UHGV virus genome: UHGV-1720292
DNA length: 10,410 nt
From: a virus
Reading direction: 5' to 3' (one strand)
In this document: one piece after another, positions 742 through 8,798 of the stretch
How the letters are laid out: each line of letters begins with the position of its first letter
How positions within the stretch are numbered: the first letter of the stretch is position 1
Translations under genes and position numbers: made by a program
Notes under the pieces: model-generated
Told to the model about the DNA's origin: nothing
The model's database searches: none
The model's input: the letters and a program-made list of their open reading frames with translations, nothing else

Positions 742-1230
742 ATGGCAGCACCAAAGGGCAACCGATTTTGGGAGGCCCGCAGTAGTCATGGGCGAAATCC
801 TAAATTCGAATCGCCTGAGGCGCTGTGGGCTGCTTGTTGTGAATACTTCGAATGGGTGGAAGCTAACCCACTTTGGGAGATGAAGGCGTTCTCATATCAG
901 GGTGAAGTGATACAAGAGCCTATCGCCAAGATGCGAGCAATGACCATCACTGGCCTGACTCTATTCCTCGATGTAACGCTTGAAACATGGCGACAATACA
1001 GGGTGAGAGAAGACTTATCTGAGGTCGTTACGCGAGCAGAGCAAATCATCTACGACCAGAAATTCTCCGGCGCAGCCGCTGACCTTCTCAACGCTAACAT
1101 CATCGCCCGCGATTTGGGCCTCAAAGAGCAGTCGCAAGTTGAAGACGTGACACCTGATAAGGGAGATCGCGATAAGCGACGCTCTCGTATCAAGGAGCTA
1201 TTCAACCGTGGAACTGGACGCGATTCTTGA
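742..1230 (+). CDS. 3: Terminase small subunit (P22 gp3-like), 162 aa
   Basis: N-terminus [46 protein letters not shown] matches the P22 gp3 sequence as I recall it. Starting at 742 gives 162 aa, the P22 gp3 length; the track's ATG at 736 is two codons upstream and cannot be excluded. Contains the pac-like 22-mer and overlaps the large terminase start by 23 nt. Confidence 0.9.
1009..1030. other. pac: pac-like site for headful packaging initiation, inside the small terminase gene
   Basis: The 22-mer GAAGACTTATCTGAGGTCGTTA at 1009-1030 matches the P22 pac site as I recall it, which lies within gene 3. Recalled from memory and not verified here. Confidence 0.55.
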
Positions 1231-2707
1231 TAACCTGAGCGACGAAGAGCAAATCGAATTGCTCGAGCTACTCGAAGAAGAAGAGAACTACCGGAACACA
1301 CACCTGCTATATGAATTTACGCCATACAGCAAACAGCGTGAGTTCATCGACGCCGGGCATGACTATCCAGAGCGATGTTTTATGGCTGGTAACCAGCTTG
1401 GTAAGTCATTTACTGGTGCTGCTGAAGTCGCGTTTCACCTTACAGGGCGTTATCCGGGCACAAAAGGCTATCCTGCTGATGGTAAATATGGCGGAGAGTG
1501 GAAAGGTAAGCGTTTCTATGAGCCTGTTGTCTTCTGGATTGGCGGCGAGACAAACGAGACTGTAACCAAAACGACTCAACGCATCCTGTGCGGTCGTATC
1601 GAAGAGAATGGTGAGCCGGGCTACGGTTCCATACCGAAAGAAGACATCATTAGCTGGAAGAAGTCTCCTTTCTTTCCGAACCTTGTTGATCATCTTCTGG
1701 TTAAGCATCACACGACTGATGGTGTTGAAGATGGCATTTCAATCTGCTACTTCAAACCATACTCGCAAGGCCGTGCTCGCTGGCAGGGTGACACAATCCA
1801 CGGCGTGTGGTTTGACGAAGAGCCACCATACAGCATTTATGGCGAAGGGCTTACCCGTACCAACAAATACGGGCAATTCTCGATTCTGACGTTTACCCCG
1901 CTGATGGGGATGTCTGACGTTGTTACCAAGTTCCTGAAGAATCCCAGCAAGTCGCAGAAAGTGGTCAACATGACCATCTATGACGCTGAGCACTATACCG
2001 ACGAGCAGAAAGAGCAAATCATCGCATCCTATCCCGAGCATGAGAGAGAGGCGCGTGCTCGCGGGATTCCTACGATGGGTAGCGGTCGAATCTTCCAGAT
2101 ACCGGAAGAGACGATTAAGTGTCAGCCGTTCGAGTGTCCTGATCACTTCTACGTAATTGGCGGGATGGATTTTGGATGGGATCACCCACAGGCGCAGGTT
2201 CAGCTTTGGTGGGATAAGGACGCAGACACAATCTACGTTTCACGCGTGTGGAAGGCGAAAGAAAAAACAGCCGTTCAGGCATGGGGAGCTGTTAAATCAT
2301 GGGCGCATAAAGTGCCAACCGCATGGCCTCATGACGGAAACCAGCATGAGAAGGGCGGCGGTGAGCAGCTCAAAGGGCAGTATGCAGACGCTGGATTTAT
2401 GATGTTACAGGAGCATGCGACATGGCCTGATGGCGGTAATGCTGTTGAGCCTGGAATCACTGAATTGCGCGACATGATGCTTGATGGTCGCTTCAAAGTA
2501 TTCAACACCTGTGAGCCATTCTTTGAGGAGTTCCGCCTCTATCACCGTGATGAAAACGGGAAGATCGTCAAGCTTAACGACGACGTTCTCTCAGCCGTTC
2601 GCTATGCATACATGATGCGCCGCTTCGCCAAAATGATGCGCGACATCAAAAAACCAAAAGAGAAAAAGATACCAGCCCCAATCAGGCCCATCGCACGGAG
2701 AACTTAA
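1208..2707 (+). CDS. 2: Terminase large subunit (P22 gp2-like), 499 aa
   Basis: N-terminus [37 protein letters not shown] matches the recalled P22 gp2 and has the same length. Walker A-like AGNQLGKS and Walker B-like VWFDEE motifs in the N-terminal ATPase half, with a C-terminal nuclease half. Stop TAA 2705-2707 abuts the portal ATG. Confidence 0.95.
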
Positions 2708-4873
2708 ATGGCCGACGAAAACAGACTCAATTCCATTCTGTGTAAGTTTGACGCGGACTGGATGGCGAGCGATGAAGCCAGAACCGAGGCGACAAATGAC
2801 CTGTATTTTAGCCGAGTGTCGCAATGGGATGACTGGCTATCAAACTACACCACCCTGCAATATCGCGGACAATTCGATGTTGTTCGCCCGGTGGTCAGGA
2901 AGCTGGTCGCAGAGATGCGCCGTAACCCTATCGACGTTCTATTCAGACCAAAAGACGGCGCTAATCCTGATGCTGCCGATGTGTTGATGGGGATGTATCG
3001 TACTGATATGCGCCATAACACGGCAAAAATTGCCGTTAACGTTGGCGTTCGTGAGCAGATAGAGTCAGGCGTTGGTGCATGGCGTCTGGTCACGCAGTAC
3101 GAAGACAACGATCCAACAAGCAACAATCAGGTAATCCGACGCCTGCCAATCCATGAAGCCTGCTCACACGTCATATGGGACGCCAACAGCAAGCAGATGG
3201 ATAAGAGCGACGCTAAGCACTGCACGGTGATTAACGCTTTGTCACGCAATGGCTGGAAAGAGTTCGCAGAGGATTACGGTATTGATCCGGACACCTTGCC
3301 ATCTTTCCAGAATCCGAACGATACATGGCTGTTTCCGTGGGTATCGAATGATGTCGTCTACGTCGCTGAGTATTACGAGGTCGAAGAGAAGAAAGAGAAA
3401 GTCTTCATCTACCGCGACCCGCTGACAGGTGAGCCGGTCAGCTATTACCAGCAGGATATCAAAGACGTCATCGACGACCTGGCTAATCGTGGATTCATTA
3501 AGGTAGCAGAGCGCAAGGTGAAGCGTCGGCGTGTGTATAAGTCGATCATCACCTGCACGCAGATACTGAAAGACCGCGAGAAGATAGCCGGAGAGCATAT
3601 TCCAATCGTTCCAGTGTATGGCGAATGGTCATTCGCTGGTGACAAGGAGTGCTACGAGGGCGTGGTAAGGCTGACGAAAGACGGTCAGCGCCTTCGTAAC
3701 ATGATCATGTCATTCAACGCCGATATTGTTGCTCGTTCACCGAAGAAGAAACCGACCTTCTTCCCTGAGCAAATCGAAGGCTACGAATACATGTACGGTG
3801 GAAATGATGACTATCCGTACTATCTGCAGAACAGGACCGATGAAAACGGTAACGACCTGCCGATTGGTCCAATCTCCTACATGGAAAACCCTGAAGTGCC
3901 GCAAGCCAACGCTTACATGCTTGAGGCTGCCACCAACGCAGTGAAAGAGGTGGCTAGTCTTGGCGTGGATGCGCAGGCGGCAAACTCTCAGGTCGCTTTC
4001 GATACCGTCAATCAACTGAACATGCGGGCGGACCTTGAGACATACGTGTTTCAGGATAACCTGGCTACCGCAATGCGACGTGATGGCGAGATTTATGCCT
4101 CAATGGTCAACGATATTTATGACGTTCCTCGTCATGTAACGCTGACACTTGAAGATGGAAGCGAGAAAGACGTTCAACTCTATGCGCAAGTTGTAGATTA
4201 CCAGTCTGGCAATGTGGTCACACTCAACGACATTCGCGGTCGCTATGAGTGCTATACAGACGTTGGACCATCCTTCCAGAGTATGAAGGAACAGAACCGC
4301 GCAGAGATTCAGGAGTTGCTCACCAAGGTTCCGCAAGGTACTCCAGAGTTCCAGATGCTGATGCTGCAATACTTCACGCTCCTTGACGGTAAAGGCGTCG
4401 AGATGATGCGAGAGTACGCGAATAAGCAACTGGTGATGATGGGGCTGAAGAAACCAGAAACACCTGAAGAGATGGAGATGGTGCAACAGGCACAACAACA
4501 GCCGCAGCAGCCATCAGCAGAGCAAATTCAGGCGCAGGGTATCCTTCTGCAAGGTCAGGCTGAATTGCTCAAGGCAGAGAACCAACAGGCGCAGATTCAG
4601 GTTGAAGCCGCCAAGGTTGAAGCCCAAAACCAACTCAACGCCGCGAAGATTGCAGAAATCTTCAACAATATGGACCTCGACAAGCAGGCAGAACTGCGTG
4701 AGTACCTCAAGCTCGTAGGTCAATTCCAGCAACAGCGCAGCAAAGATGCTCGTGCTAACGCTGAGCTGCTTCTTAAAGATGCAGACCAGACTCATTCACA
4801 ACGCATGGATTTCGCGAATCTTATGCGTCAAGTTCAAATCCCCTCCGGCGGAGTAGCCGAGACACCTCAATAA
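2708..4873 (+). CDS. 1: Portal protein (P22 gp1-like), 721 aa
   Basis: Collinear with the recalled P22 portal (725 aa), including the N-terminus MAD.ENRL and internal [25 protein letters not shown]. Ends in a Gln/Ala-rich helical tail ([50 protein letters not shown]). Confidence 0.95.
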
Positions 4874-4886
4874 GAGAGAGTTAATC

Positions 4887-5798
4887 ATGGACCAAACCAC
4901 CGACATTCAGGCTTCTGAAGAATTAACCCTGCCCGGCAATCATGCAGCGGCATCTGCTGATGGCTTAGTTGTCGATAATGCCAACGACAACGCAGGTCAG
5001 GAAGAAGGCTTCGAGATTGTCCTGAAAGACGATGAGAAACCAAAACAAGACCCGGCAACTAATGCTGAATTTGCCCGTCGCCGCATCGAACGCAAACGCC
5101 AGCGTGAGCTTGAGCAGCAGATGGAAGCGGTTAAGCGTGGAGAATTGCCGGAGCACCTGCGGGTGAACCCTGAGTTACCAAAACAACCAGACCCTAACGA
5201 TTATCTTTCCGAAGATGCACTGGCTAAGTACGACTATGACCAGAGCCGCGCACTGGCTGCCTTCCAGCAGGCAAACAGTGAATGGCAGATCAAGGCTATG
5301 GACGCACGAAGCCAGGCTGTCGCCGAGCAGGGTCGCAAAACTCAGGAGTTCACCCAGCAATCAGCGCAATACGTCGAGGCAGCCCGTAAGCACTACGACG
5401 CAGCGGAAAAGCTCAATATCCCTGACTATCAGGAGAAAGAGGATGCATTCATGCAACTGGTGCCGCCAGCAGTCGGTGCCGACATCATGCGCCTCTTCCC
5501 GGAGAAATCCGCTGCTCTCATGTATCACCTTGGTGCTAATCCTGAAAAAACACGCCAGTTGCTGGCGATGGACGGGCAATCCGCGTTGATTGAACTCACT
5601 CGACTGTCAGAACGTTTAACTCTCAAGCCTCGAGCCAAACCTGTTTCAGAAGCCCCGCTACCTGATGAACCCATTCAGGGACACGCTGTTGCTGCAAATA
5701 TATCTGCGATTGAAAAGCAGATGGAAGCGGCAGCAAACAAAGGGGATGTAGAGACATACCGCAAGCTCAAGGCGCAACTGAATAAAGGAATTCGATAA
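4887..5798 (+). CDS. 8: Scaffolding protein (P22 gp8-like), 303 aa
   Basis: Same length as P22 gp8. Charged, Ala/Gln/Glu-rich helical protein with a C-terminus (...[19 protein letters not shown]) resembling the P22 scaffold coat-binding helix-turn-helix. Sits between portal and coat; GAGAGAG ribosome-binding site upstream. Confidence 0.9.
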
Positions 5799-6320
5799 TT
5801 ATTTCGATATCGTGATGTTGTTTTCCTCGTCAAACTTTCTGATTACTTCTTTCGCCTCTTCGAATGAAGAACATACTTTTTGCACTCTTGCATTAAGCAG
5901 TCGCTTATGAGCGATCCATCTTTTCCGCGTGTTGCAAAAGTAAACTCCAGATATTCCGCTGGAGTTATTTTTAGATAGTTTGATTCTATTCCTTTGGTTT
6001 GCTGATTTTTTCACAAGACGAAGATTTTCAATTCTGTTGTCGTGTCGAATCCCATTTATATGGTCAATTTCCATGCCTTCTGGAATATCTCCGTTAAACA
6101 TTACCCATACGATGCGGTGTGCTAGCCACTTAATGCCGTTAATTCTTATGCGGATATATCCATTGCTTTCTAAAAGACCAGCAACTTTCCCAGCGTGTTT
6201 TGCATTCCAAACGTTGTGATAGTTGCGATTCTTTTTGTTGTTGAAAAATTCAGAGCTTCTGGCTTTCCAAACCAAAGAACCATCGCGGTATTCGAAGTAT
6301 TCATTCAGTTCCATGCTCAT
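5799..6320 (-). CDS. HNH homing endonuclease with NUMOD4-like N-terminus, HNH_3-type nuclease motif and C-terminal AP2-type DNA-binding domain, 173 aa
   Basis: Nuclease motif EIDHINGIRHDNRIENLRLVKKSANQRN. AP2-like segment SGISGVYFCNTRKRWIAHKRLLNARVQKVCSSFEEAKEV. NUMOD4-like N-terminus NEYFEYRDGSLVWKARSS. Antisense to the late operon. My hand count gives about 38-39 percent GC over 5821-6360, against about 50-52 percent in sampled flanking 60-mers. Alternative start at the second Met (6312-6314). Confidence 0.85.
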   Translation of the reverse strand: MSMELNEYFEYRDGSLVWKARSSEFFNNKKNRNYHNVWNAKHAGKVAGLLESNGYIRIRINGIKWLAHRIVWVMFNGDIPEGMEIDHINGIRHDNRIENLRLVKKSANQRNRIKLSKNNSSGISGVYFCNTRKRWIAHKRLLNARVQKVCSSFEEAKEVIRKFDEENNITISK

Positions 6321-6387
6321 AACCCTAATGCGCTATATGTTGATATAACAATAGTATAGCACATAAAGAAAGTAAGGTATTCAATAT

Positions 6388-7683
6388 ATGACTCTCAAAG
6401 AAGGGCAGTTAGTTACTTACGCTATCGATGAAATCATCGAAACCGTCCAGAACCTGACGCCAATGGCGTCCAAAGTGACAAAATACACCCCTCCGGCAGA
6501 ATCCATGCAGCGTTCAAGCAACACCGTGTGGATGCCTGTTGAGCAGGAAGCGCCAACCCAGACTGGCTGGGATTTAACTGGCAACGCAACCGGGATTCTG
6601 GAACTCTCCGTGAAATGCAACATGGGTGATCCGGATAACGATTTCTTCGAGCTTCGTGCAGATGACCTGCGTGATGAGCGTTCTTACCGTCGCCGCATCC
6701 AGGCATCCGCCAAAAAACTGGCGAATAACATTGAGTCAGCGATTGCCAAACAGGCAACTGAAATGGGCTCGCTTGTTGTTCACGATACCCGCGCAATTGG
6801 TCCATCTACTGGCCTGTCTGGCTGGGATTTTGTGTCTGATGCAGAGCGCCTGATGTTCTCCCGTGAGCTAAACCGCGATATGGGCATCAGTTACTTCCTG
6901 AACCCTGACGATTACCGCAAAGCAGGCCGCAACCTGGTAGATGGTGACATCTTCGGGCGCGTTCCTGAAGAAGCGTATCGCAACGGTACTATTCAGCGTC
7001 AGATTGCTGGCTTTGATGAAATTCTTCGCTCGCCGAAACTTCCTGCAGTTACCAAGTCAACCGCTACTGGTGTAACTGTTTCTGGTGCGCAGAAGTTTAA
7101 GCCGCAGGCATACACCCTTGATACCGATGGTAACAAAGAGAACGTCGACAACCGTGTTGCAACGGTGACCGTATCCTCCACCACCGGATTTAAGCGCGGC
7201 GACAAAATCAGCTTCACTGGTGTGAAATTCCTGTCTCAGATGGCGAAGAACGTGCTGACTGATGATGCGACTTTCTCAATCACCCGTGTGATCGATGGTA
7301 CTCACATCGAAATCACGCCGAAACCGATTGCACTGGATGACGCGTCACTGACAAAAGAAGAGAAGGCTTACGCTAACGTAAACACCTCTCTTGCTGATTC
7401 CACTCCGGTAAACGTTCTGAACGTGGCAACAACCACCGCTAACGTGTTCTGGGCTGATGACTCAATCCGCCTGCTGTCTCAGCCGATTCCGGTAACCCAT
7501 GAACTGTTTGCTGGCATGAAAACGTCTTCCTTCAGCATTCCTGGTATTGGTGTTAACGGCATCTTCGCAACGCAGGGTGATATCAATACTCTGTCTGGTA
7601 AGTGCCGTATTGCTGTGTGGTATTCAGCATGTGCTGTACGGCCAGAGGCAATTGGTGTTGGTCTGCCTAACCAGACCGCGTGA
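6388..7683 (+). CDS. 5: Major capsid (coat) protein (P22 gp5-like), 431 aa
   Basis: Near-collinear with the recalled P22 coat protein (430 aa), for example [91 protein letters not shown] and the C-terminus [18 protein letters not shown] ribosome-binding site upstream. Confidence 0.95.
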
Positions 7684-7690
7684 TAACCAG

Positions 7691-7716
7691 AGGGAGCTTC
7701 GGCTCCCTTTTCTATT
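7691..7716 (+). terminator. Rho-independent terminator immediately downstream of the coat gene
   Basis: AGGGAGC (7691-7697), TTCG tetraloop (7698-7701), GCTCCCT (7702-7708), then a T-rich run TTTTCTATT. Begins 8 nt after the coat stop codon. Likely partial, given that essential genes follow. Confidence 0.7.
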
Positions 7717-7726
7717 GGAGATACCA

Positions 7727-8320
7727 ATGAGCGTAATGATTTTTCAGGCTGGCGGAGATACCAAAATCTGGGGACGCAAGCTGAAAACGAAAACCGTTGA
7801 TCCTGATGATGTAGCTGTGCACTTAGCAAATGGCTGGTATAAGCACCCTGACGATGTTCCTGATGATCCTCTTGTTGGTGATCACATTAGGAGTGTTGGC
7901 GTAGGTGAAACTTCCCCAGTTGATATGGGCGAAGTGTCCGACGGTTATCACACTTTTAACGAGCTTTACGCTCACCGAGTGCGCCTCTTCTCATCGCTGA
8001 TGCATGCTTACGCTGAGCTTTCGTGGTGGTCTCGCAAACACAGTGACGGTGAAGAGTGGGATGGCTGGATCATTGCTGGTATCACCACTCCAGAAGGCGA
8101 AATCACTTATCACCTACCTGTTGAAGAAATCGAGTTCCTTCCTGAAGGTACTGAGCTTGAGTTCGGGAAAGAGTGGGATGGTCATGAAGCAAATGATGTT
8201 CTTGGACGACTCCTGAGTTTGCGTCCGGCTATTGCAGAGCCAGAGCCAGAAGAAAAACAGCGTAAAAAGCCTGGTCGAAAACCTAAGGCGGCAGCAGATG
8301 AACCTGACAACGAAGGGTGA
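7727..8320 (+). CDS. Hypothetical acidic protein, 197 aa, between coat and gene 4; function unknown
   Basis: ATG 7727 with GGAG (7717-7720) 6 nt upstream, just past the coat terminator. The track's longer 7547..8320 ORF is the same frame extended back through the coat 3' end and the terminator. D/E- and W-rich, with two EWDG motifs ([11 protein letters not shown] and [11 protein letters not shown]) and a basic C-terminal tail [15 protein letters not shown] content similar to flanks. Overlaps gene 4 by 23 nt. No family recognised. Confidence 0.7.
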
Positions 8321-8798
8321 TTTAGTCCTTGCGGCATTACGTAAGCTCGGTGTGGCATCAAATGCCACGTTAACAGATGTCGAACCGCAGTCTATGGAAG
8401 ACGGCGTCAACGACCTTGAAATGATGATGGCTGAATGGATTGGCGGTGATGCGTCACCTGGTATCAACGTTGGCTACATTTTTGCTGATGCAGATGTTGC
8501 TCCGGATCCGGGCGATGAGCACGGTTTATCAAATAACGCTATCAATGCCGTCATTTTCAACCTTGCCTGCCGCATTGCTCCAGATTATGCGCTGGAAGCG
8601 TCTGCAAAACTTATAACCACTGCCAGATACGGGAAAGAGCGACTCGTCAAACTGTCTGCAATGGACAGAGCAAAAGCCGCTAAATGTAAGTCAGGTTATC
8701 CAAACCGTATGCCTGTTGGTAGTGGTAACCAGTTGGCGAAGTGGAACGGTTGGAATTACTTCCAGCGAAAGGAACCTTGCGATAACGGGAGCGAATAA
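8298..8798 (+). CDS. 4: Head-completion / tail-adaptor protein (P22 gp4-like), 166 aa
   Basis: Starting at ATG 8298 ([32 protein letters not shown]...) gives 166 aa, the recalled length of P22 gp4, with matching N-terminal and [14 protein letters not shown] motifs. The track's 8232 start would add 22 residues inside the preceding ORF. Confidence 0.85.

Follow-up and report, generated by a model that had tools for sequence, protein, structure and literature searches.

A WDGH domain carried by a late gene of P22-like phages is a candidate module for countering nucleotide immune signals

The open reading frame (ORF) analysed here lies on the plus strand at positions 7727–8320 of the virus genome UHGV-1720292, whose whole stretch of 10,410 nucleotides (nt) is referred to below as the window. 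It runs from an ATG at 7727 to a TGA at 8318–8320 and encodes a protein of 197 amino acids (aa), in which a WDGH domain is set into a scaffold of the P22 ORF69 family. The upstream neighbour is the coat gene (6388–7683, plus strand), a 431-aa ORF of the P22 gp5 type that aligns with the genes labelled major head protein or coat protein in phages Louie, IME10 and P22. Downstream lies a homologue of gene 4, the head-tail adaptor (8298–8798, plus strand), annotated as gp4/Ad3 in P22, ST64T and Louie. A Shine-Dalgarno (SD) sequence GGAG at 7717–7720 (plus strand), 6 nt 5' of the ATG, is conserved in Louie and P22. We took ATG 8298 as the start of gene 4, because it fits the gp4 annotations and the conserved overlap; it gives a product of 166 aa, presumably the length of P22 gp4, and an overlap of 23 nt with the 197-aa ORF, comparable to the 17 nt found in P22 and ST64T. 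The mechanical ORF list opens the gene 4 frame at TTG 8232 (8232–8798). Judging from the sequence, the likely ribosome-binding site of gene 4 is a TAAGG inside the stretch that encodes the basic tail of the ORF (8255–8287). These coordinates, read from the sequence, bear out the original prediction, which had described a 197-aa ORF with a strong ribosome-binding site behind the coat gene and a 23-nt overlap with gene 4. An own promoter for the ORF was rejected: only 43 nt separate it from the coat gene, these contain the hairpin and the SD, and no sigma-70-like site was seen in them; the lack of a promoter-like site in this gap implies that the ORF is part of the late operon.

The 197-aa ORF is a real coding gene under protein-level selection. 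In comparison with its homologue in ST64T (61% aa identity), synonymous divergence (pS) was 0.88–0.93, that is, synonymous sites were saturated, whereas non-synonymous divergence (pN) rose from 0.16 for the WDGH domain through 0.30 for the N-terminal domain (N-domain) to 0.52 for the linker between them. The original prediction had also raised the case that conservation follows only the nucleotide sequence; this is excluded by a pN that lies far below a saturated pS.

The protein is acidic and rich in tryptophan (pI 4.8, 39 Asp or Glu, 7 Trp), with EWDG at aa 110 and again at aa 149 and PGRKPK at aa 182–187, all of which had been recognised correctly. It had been considered unplaceable in any known family. 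We found, however, that the Pfam family PF25311 (WDGH) matches aa 68–165 (7928–8221, plus strand) with 134.8 bits against a cutoff of 27, well above the gathering threshold and over positions 1–97 of the 97 in the profile (E = 1.3e-39), and that PHROG 3769 matches the full-length protein (E = 9e-101); the function of both families is unknown. RefSeq labels identical genes of Escherichia coli prophages 'WDGH domain-containing protein', and cluster P0001, which is 97% identical to the window protein, contains 1929 member sequences. The repeated EWDG, which had been described as a duplicated motif, does not reflect an internal duplication: both copies belong to a single domain, as its conserved motifs W..DG (aa 111–113) and WDGH (aa 150–153).

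The remainder of the protein is made of four further segments, all on the plus strand. The N-terminal ORF69-type domain (aa 1–47; 7727–7867) is a beta-hairpin followed by a helix with a GW..HP motif. Its aa 1–44 match phrog_1175, a family of unknown function, with E = 1.7e-14 (8.4e-9 when the N-domain is scanned alone), and G9, G16, G36, W37, H40 and P41 are invariant in the alignment to P22 ORF69. It is followed by a disordered linker (aa 48–66; 7868–7924), where most of the differences among long-form alleles are concentrated. Behind the WDGH domain come (GAGCCA)2, encoding (EP)2 (8237–8248), a low-copy version of an in-frame hexanucleotide repeat that is hypervariable, and a basic tail of 11 aa (8255–8287) that includes K-K-P-G-R-K-P-K, which is identical in the short and long forms described below and reads PRKGRKPK in P22 and KKPGPKPK in ST64T. 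The tail had been loosely likened to an AT-hook; it has PGRKP in place of the core R-G-R-P and no GRP core, so it contains no canonical AT-hook. An AlphaFold2 model built from 51 homologues had a mean pLDDT of 86. In this model, the N-domain (pLDDT 86–96) is predicted to form strands 3–14 and 17–24 and helix 26–34, the linker falls below a pLDDT of 50 at aa 49–60, and the WDGH domain (pLDDT 89–98) is predicted to form helix 77–94, strands 99–102, 114–121 and 124–131 and helices 132–137 and 155–163; the confidence is lower in the C-terminal tail.

The gene order of P22 had been given as gene 5 followed by gene 4. P22 itself, however, carries ORF69 (69 aa) in the coat–gene 4 slot. We surveyed the presence and absence of this gene across P22-like genomes, as had been suggested, using 80 IMG/VR loci with a gp4 97–99% identical to that of the window, plus phage loci, of which 79 were scored. 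The slot was never empty: a single ORF69-family ORF occupied it in 79/79 loci, as the P22 ORF69 form (69 aa) in 1, as a short form of 74–104 aa in ~69 and as the WDGH form of 186–199 aa in 9. Among phage records, 39 full-length matches to the long form compare with 215 records matching the window, and the long form was found in 42 of 217 E. coli genomes; it thus has a share of ~10–20% among morphogenetic modules that are otherwise 97–99% identical. The window and ST64T are among the long-form phages. The slot had been regarded as a variable one, which is correct in that the gene is non-core and the WDGH form is in the minority, but the slot always holds an ORF69-family gene, and it is the cassette within that gene and the (EP)n run that vary.

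In Louie and IME10, the flanks are 96–97% identical to the window and the slot gene, of 74–104 aa, consists of a related N-domain, (EP)n and the same tail. Alignment with Louie delimited the exchange: homology is lost after the SD (~7722) and regained at the GAGCCA repeat (~8234), defining a cassette (7723–8233, plus strand) of N-domain allele, linker and WDGH domain that distinguishes the long from the short form. The cassette brings a divergent N-domain allele, 26–34% identical to those of the short forms, as well as the WDGH domain. The P22 ORF69 family (PHROG 1175) and the window gene share the slot, the upstream hairpin, the SD, a homologous N-domain, the basic tail and the overlap with gene 4, whereas P22 ORF69 and the E. 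coli short forms are 69–104 aa long without WDGH and the window protein has ~120 aa of linker and WDGH domain between the N-domain and the tail. At 197 aa and filed separately as PHROG 3769, the window protein falls outside the small single-domain form (~70–100 aa) of the ORF69 family. Its closest described relatives are the Salmonella long forms ST64T gp56, ST104 ORF54 and SE1 orf56 (PHROG 3769), which have the same architecture, the same slot and all WDGH motif residues. They carry a different allele, as no record in the phage collection is more than ~62% identical to the window protein; the window allele is present in E. coli prophages and IMG/VR contigs.

The number of EP units, encoded by in-frame GAGCCA, ranges from 1 to 16 among related phages, with 2 in the window, and is the main difference among the short forms. 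Within the (EP)n runs of the slot loci (L002–L087), occasional ES, EQ and ET variants were seen among near-identical ORF69-family alleles. With its acidic EP run ahead of a tail rich in K and P, the protein is reminiscent of the TonB spacer. Conservation of the basic tail may be partly regulatory, as its DNA carries the likely gene 4 ribosome-binding site. The best 120 matches of a profile search with the N-domain were small ORF69-family proteins only, none of them with another cargo domain. A literature search on P22 'orf69' found nothing relevant. The epsilon34 genome paper describes a morphogenetic cluster without morons apart from the ant moron and does not discuss the coat–gene 4 slot, and the accessory-gene screens of Silas et al. 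make no mention of it.

WDGH proteins form a large family. When 1.84 billion representatives were scanned with phmmer, 3657 WDGH clusters (at 50% identity) were recovered at E ≤ 1e-3, and 198 of 50,697 phage records contain the domain. It occurs as a stand-alone protein of 100–130 aa, in tandem, or at the N-terminus, in the middle or at the C-terminus of proteins of 112–570 aa; the stand-alone state is the commonest in Firmicute phages, and the natural tandem proteins are a hint of dimerisation. Near-invariant residues are S71, D72, G73, H75, T76, F77, E79, L80, Y81, H83, R84, W100, S102, H105, D107 and G108 in the N-terminal part of the domain and G118, G124, Y128, H129, W150, D151, G152, H153 and R161 in the C-terminal part; the family motifs read S-D-G-Y-H-T-F-x-E-L-Y-x-H-R, Y-H and W-D-G-H, with an R near the C-terminal end, and all are present in the window protein. 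The window protein has all positions that are conserved in at least 90% of 149 family representatives; position 154 alone differs (E in the window, T in 83%). Given their i, i+4, i+8 spacing, H75, E79 and H83 would lie on one helix face. Searches of Pfam, PHROGs, NCBIfam and PDB folds matched the window protein to no structural or assembly family and no solved fold, in line with the earlier description of the protein as non-structural, and a BFVD fold search returned only uncharacterised WDGH proteins and small look-alikes of the N-domain. Stand-alone WDGH genes were also seen inside or at the edge of head and packaging modules of unrelated Firmicute phages: in the interval from portal to minor capsid gene, between two small ORFs (L007, 4908–5303), two genes past a Mu-F-like gene (L100, 5001–5390) and just 5' of an HNH-terminase (L096, 5001–5372).

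Several partners of the WDGH domain hint at immune signalling. Pfam scans of the 149 representatives found fusions to Sequestin (PF21825) in 6, Lar restriction-alleviation in 3, the Acb2/Tad1 hairpin in 1 and a Tad2-like domain in 1; RNase_T and YodL were found in 1 each, together with zinc ribbons. One protein, P0101, is a triple fusion of Tad2-like, WDGH and Sequestin domains. Sequestin is an experimentally validated sponge for 3'cADPR and was itself discovered through fusions to known sponges (PMC12265669). In Pavtok-like temperate phages, the interval between cI/cro-like regulators and the integrase is filled by a variable set of small genes, and WDGH genes are among them. WDGH directly follows a Tad2-like gene in two of these loci (L089 and L095); in L092, the next gene downstream is of the Acb2/Tad1-hairpin type, and the same-strand run also contains a Tad2-Sequestin fusion; in L090, a RyR-domain gene lies three genes upstream. 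RyR Tad, a RyR-domain protein, is a sponge for gcADPR (PMC13251945). In two loci of the same phage type, L093 and L094, WDGH had no recognised neighbour. Over L089, L090, L092 and L095 (~1000–7000 each), the small-gene run mixes Tad2-like, Tad2-Sequestin, Acb2/Tad1-hairpin, RyR-domain and WDGH genes, and it looks like an anti-signalling island.

A further clue comes from bacteria. A 122-aa WDGH gene (P0384) lies inside a type III-B cas operon of Streptococcus suis, seen in two loci (L098 and L099; 1–10369), with the order Cas10/Cmr2, Cmr3, Cmr4, Cmr6, a 575-aa unknown protein, WDGH, a 380-aa protein, Cas2 and RT-Cas1; 3' of the operon are arrays of 17–21 repeats whose spacers differ between the loci. 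The WDGH gene is separated by 6 nt from the gene before it and shares 20 nt with the gene that follows, and its product is 62% identical to the copy in Listeria phage P100. The C-terminus of the 575-aa protein looks hydrophobic by eye. A match to a Card1-like nuclease domain in the 380-aa protein stays below the threshold (E = 1e-4), and the protein's sole PDB match, a weak one (E = 0.0012), is a 387-aa chain deposited as 'DUF1887 family protein', which we take to be the Can2/Card1 nuclease family. Between the two loci, Cmr3, Cmr4 and Cmr6 are 34%, 46% and 75% identical, whereas the block from the 575-aa protein through WDGH, the Card1-like protein and Cas2 to RT-Cas1 is 97–100% identical; a fixed ancillary and adaptation block beside divergent Cmr genes suggests modular exchange of the effector-complex genes. 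A contig scan with the S. suis WDGH protein gave three loci only, none with recognisable relatives of the S. suis cas genes. Small genes at this position of the operon are typically ring nucleases (PMC12409355, PMC12830947), and Crn4, a ring nuclease with a new fold, was discovered by the same route, is associated with Can2 and is also present in phages (PMC12830947, PMC12409355).

WDGH resembles both classes of protein in habit and differs from both in sequence and structure. The sponges Sequestin (PF21825), Tad2 (PF11195), Acb2/Tad1 and RyR Tad are, like WDGH, small phage accessory domains that stand alone or are arranged as beads on a string; WDGH is fused or adjacent to each of Sequestin, Tad2, Acb2/Tad1 and RyR, and Sequestin was found through the same fusion logic. 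WDGH has no sequence or fold relationship to these sponges, is acidic overall and carries an enzyme-like invariant set of His, Asp and Glu. It did not qualify as a member of the known sponge families Tad1, Tad2, Acb2, Acb4, Sequestin or Lockin, since its sole Pfam match is WDGH and it has no PDB fold match; an identity with Lockin or Acb5 was rejected on phage distribution. With the ring nucleases Crn2/AcrIII-1 and Crn4 it shares a size of ~100–130 aa, a fold that is new in each case, conserved His and Arg, and its presence in phages; the S. suis homologue, unlike the window gene in its phage late operon, also shares with them a place in a type III CRISPR operon next to a putative CARF-type effector. 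Crn4b, too, is linked to Can2 and occurs in phages, with some copies N-terminally extended. No sequence or structure match placed WDGH in any ring nuclease family (Crn1–4, Csx15/16/20, AcrIII-1), in PDB libraries stated to reach April 2026 (the Crn4 paper dates from December 2025) which may not include the Crn4 entries 9SMA, 9QS9 and 9R7B. We rejected an identity with Crn4 on phage distribution, conserved residues and secondary structure: Crn4 was found in 11 of 28,137 phage records, against 198 of 50,697 for WDGH, and is mostly beta with one short helix and the residues T13, H15 and R112; WDGH, by contrast, is predicted to combine an 18-residue helix with four strands.

Taken together, these associations lead us to propose, tentatively and with somewhat more doubt than belief, that the WDGH domain of the 197-aa protein is expressed late as a module against host defence, which would act by binding or cleaving nucleotide immune signals. 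The scaffold is the ORF69-type protein of all P22-like phages examined, composed of an N-domain, an acidic (EP)n spacer and a basic tail, and translated from the late operon in translational coupling to gene 4. In a minority of phages, a recombination cassette swaps the N-domain allele and adds the ~100-aa WDGH domain, which may act as a self-contained accessory module recognising a nucleotide-derived immune second messenger. It could do so as a sponge, or as a small phosphodiesterase or ring-nuclease-like enzyme; the enzyme option relies on the helix face H75-x3-E79-x3-H83 together with H105, H129, H153, R84 and R161. As it is recombined into an ORF69-family late gene, WDGH would be produced alongside the coat protein, and it might in this way blunt late-firing signalling defences such as CBASS, Thoeris, Pycsar and type III CRISPR-like systems. 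Signalling defences are reportedly triggered late, for example by capsid proteins, which is compatible with the late timing of WDGH (PMC12409355). The earlier guess of an anti-defence cargo thus gains indirect support from the sponge fusions and neighbourhoods and from the type III CRISPR locus. A broader and doubtful version would see WDGH as a new-fold family, a novel class of ring nuclease/phosphodiesterase or of sponge, that binds or degrades nucleotide immune messengers and is used both by type III CRISPR operons, as an off-switch, and by phages, as a widespread means of countering CBASS, Thoeris or type III signalling, possibly travelling with the capsid through the ORF69 graft. The T4 internal proteins Ip1–3, which are capsid-targeted, injected anti-restriction cargo (PMC12373910), are similar in that they attach variable cargo to a short, conserved N-terminal module and are encoded among head genes; they are unrelated in sequence, and capsid targeting by the ORF69 N-domain or tail would be conjectural.

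Several observations weigh against this proposal. The functional case is inferred by guilt by association. Named anti-defence domains are fused in ~7% of the representatives and most WDGH proteins have no partner domain; the four sponge-adjacent loci are not independent, because they come from one related group of temperate phages; and the CRISPR association is found in one species only. The WDGH domain has a net charge of -13 in the window and a family median of -7. Many anti-defence genes are expressed early, whereas this ORF is late only, and WDGH genes recur inside or beside the head and packaging modules of unrelated phages. Scans of the protein with NCBIfam and PADLOC gave zero matches, and searches of the literature for 'WDGH' gave irrelevant matches only. 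The pockets of known sponges, moreover, are positively charged (PMC12265669), in contrast to the acidic WDGH domain.

The acidity, which is strong here and family-wide, could also indicate counter-defence or host takeover by protein–protein inhibition or nucleic-acid mimicry, for example through an acidic decoy of a restriction or defence nuclease or a host-sensor binder, and we regard this as rather unlikely. An optional accessory gene in a hot slot, the Lar restriction-alleviation fusion in 3 representatives and a DNA methylase gene upstream in L088 would all fit. However, the conserved residues are His, Tyr, Arg, Trp and Gly with few Asp, and form no conserved acidic surface; the fold resembles neither Ocr nor ArdA nor any other solved mimic; signal sponges predominate among the partners and neighbours; and a host is unlikely to keep an inhibitor of its own nuclease, as the CRISPR copy, which adjoins a signal-activated effector, would imply. 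The DNA mimic of the original prediction is therefore left with acidity as its support, given the lack of a PDB fold match and of a conserved carboxylate array, and both it and a capsid accessory role are weaker alternatives to an action on immune signals. A small enzyme of nucleotide or nucleic-acid metabolism unrelated to immunity, such as a nucleotide hydrolase or a nuclease cofactor, appears improbable. The invariant His, Asp, Glu, Arg and Tyr of the WDGH domain are dense for ~100 aa, single fusions to RNase_T and Rv2179c-like exonuclease domains occur, L096 and L097 have a MazG gene two positions before WDGH, and the P0118 contig has a glycosyltransferase gene next to it; yet these associations are single cases while the recurrent partners are immune-signal sponges, a dispensable gene, patchy among near-identical phages, would be unusual for core metabolism, and the CRISPR-operon context is hard to explain in this way.

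A role in morphogenesis or packaging, whether as a non-essential aid to head assembly or completion, as a minor protein that stays inside the head or is ejected, or as a DNA-binding partner of gp4 or the portal, seems quite improbable to us, in spite of a location between the coat and head-completion genes with translational coupling to gene 4 and an ORF69 scaffold in every related phage examined. The basic, loosely AT-hook-like tail would suit such a role, as would the order portal, 249-nt ORF, WDGH, 174-nt ORF, minor capsid gene in Streptococcus phage phiARI0378 and the position of WDGH in a head and packaging module of a Citroniella prophage and just 5' of HNH-terminase in L096 and L097. 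WDGH is, however, missing from 80–90% of phages whose coat protein and gp4 are 97–99% identical, implying that it is not needed for assembly; elsewhere it is found in early operons beside regulators and integrase and in a bacterial CRISPR operon, and no similarity to a structural family was found. ORF69 is not known to be a P22 virion protein, which also counts against this role. The ORF might instead serve chiefly as a leader whose translation brings ribosomes beyond the coat-distal hairpin and on to gene 4, with an unimportant protein product. The slot ORF overlaps the gene 4 start in each of the four forms looked at in detail (P22, ST64T, the short form of Louie, and the window), and no DNA segment is better conserved between long and short forms than the tail, with its putative gene 4 SD. 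We nevertheless consider this very improbable: it is largely refuted by purifying selection on the amino-acid sequence while synonymous sites are saturated, and it is at odds with a Pfam domain conserved across phyla, a confident AlphaFold2 model and an N-domain motif kept at 26–47% identity.

Apart from the 197-aa ORF, the surroundings of the slot hold further features. Between the coat stop (7683) and the SD lies a stem-loop (7689–7710, plus strand) of 9 bp with a UUCG loop and a U-rich stretch behind it (fold -20.9 kcal/mol, z -2.5). It may be the terminator that had been placed before the ORF: the hairpin is stable and has its U-rich stretch, but it was not called by a consensus terminator scan, and its U run is partly paired to the base of the stem. 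The stem reads GGGAGC/GCUCCC in the window, GGGGC-tgcg-GCCCC in P22 and GGGGC-ttcg-GCCCC in ST64T, with position, loop size and trailing U-rich run kept in all three (L004 6829–6842; L001 3967–3980). The stems differ in sequence and yet stay complementary across the three phages compared, in keeping with a conserved RNA element, which may act in termination or attenuation or may stabilise the mRNA. Further upstream, flanked by the scaffold and coat genes, an HNH-like 173-aa ORF (window 5799–6320, minus strand) with the motif DHINGIRHDNRIENL is also found in Louie, where it is labelled HNH endonuclease; IME10 and P22 lack it and their scaffold gene abuts the coat gene. It looks like a mobile homing-endonuclease insertion into the morphogenetic operon. 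Two small ORFs of 80 and 59 aa (295–537 and 539–718) lie 5' of the small terminase gene, the first of which aligns to P22 ORF80, a protein of unknown function.

The coat–gene 4 'gap' of P22 is a conserved small gene, the ORF69 family, with a hypervariable (EP)n spacer. P22-like phages also offer a natural experiment, in which near-isogenic prophages differ solely by the WDGH cassette in a defined late slot. The gene belongs to catalogued yet uncharacterised families; under the best explanation, it would represent a new family in a functional class that is already known. If this is true, it would be a large addition to the phage anti-signalling proteins, with thousands of clusters in phages of Proteobacteria and Firmicutes and a fold without a solved relative, and the WDGH protein of type III CRISPR loci would be its host counterpart, in parallel to Crn2/AcrIII-1 and Crn4.

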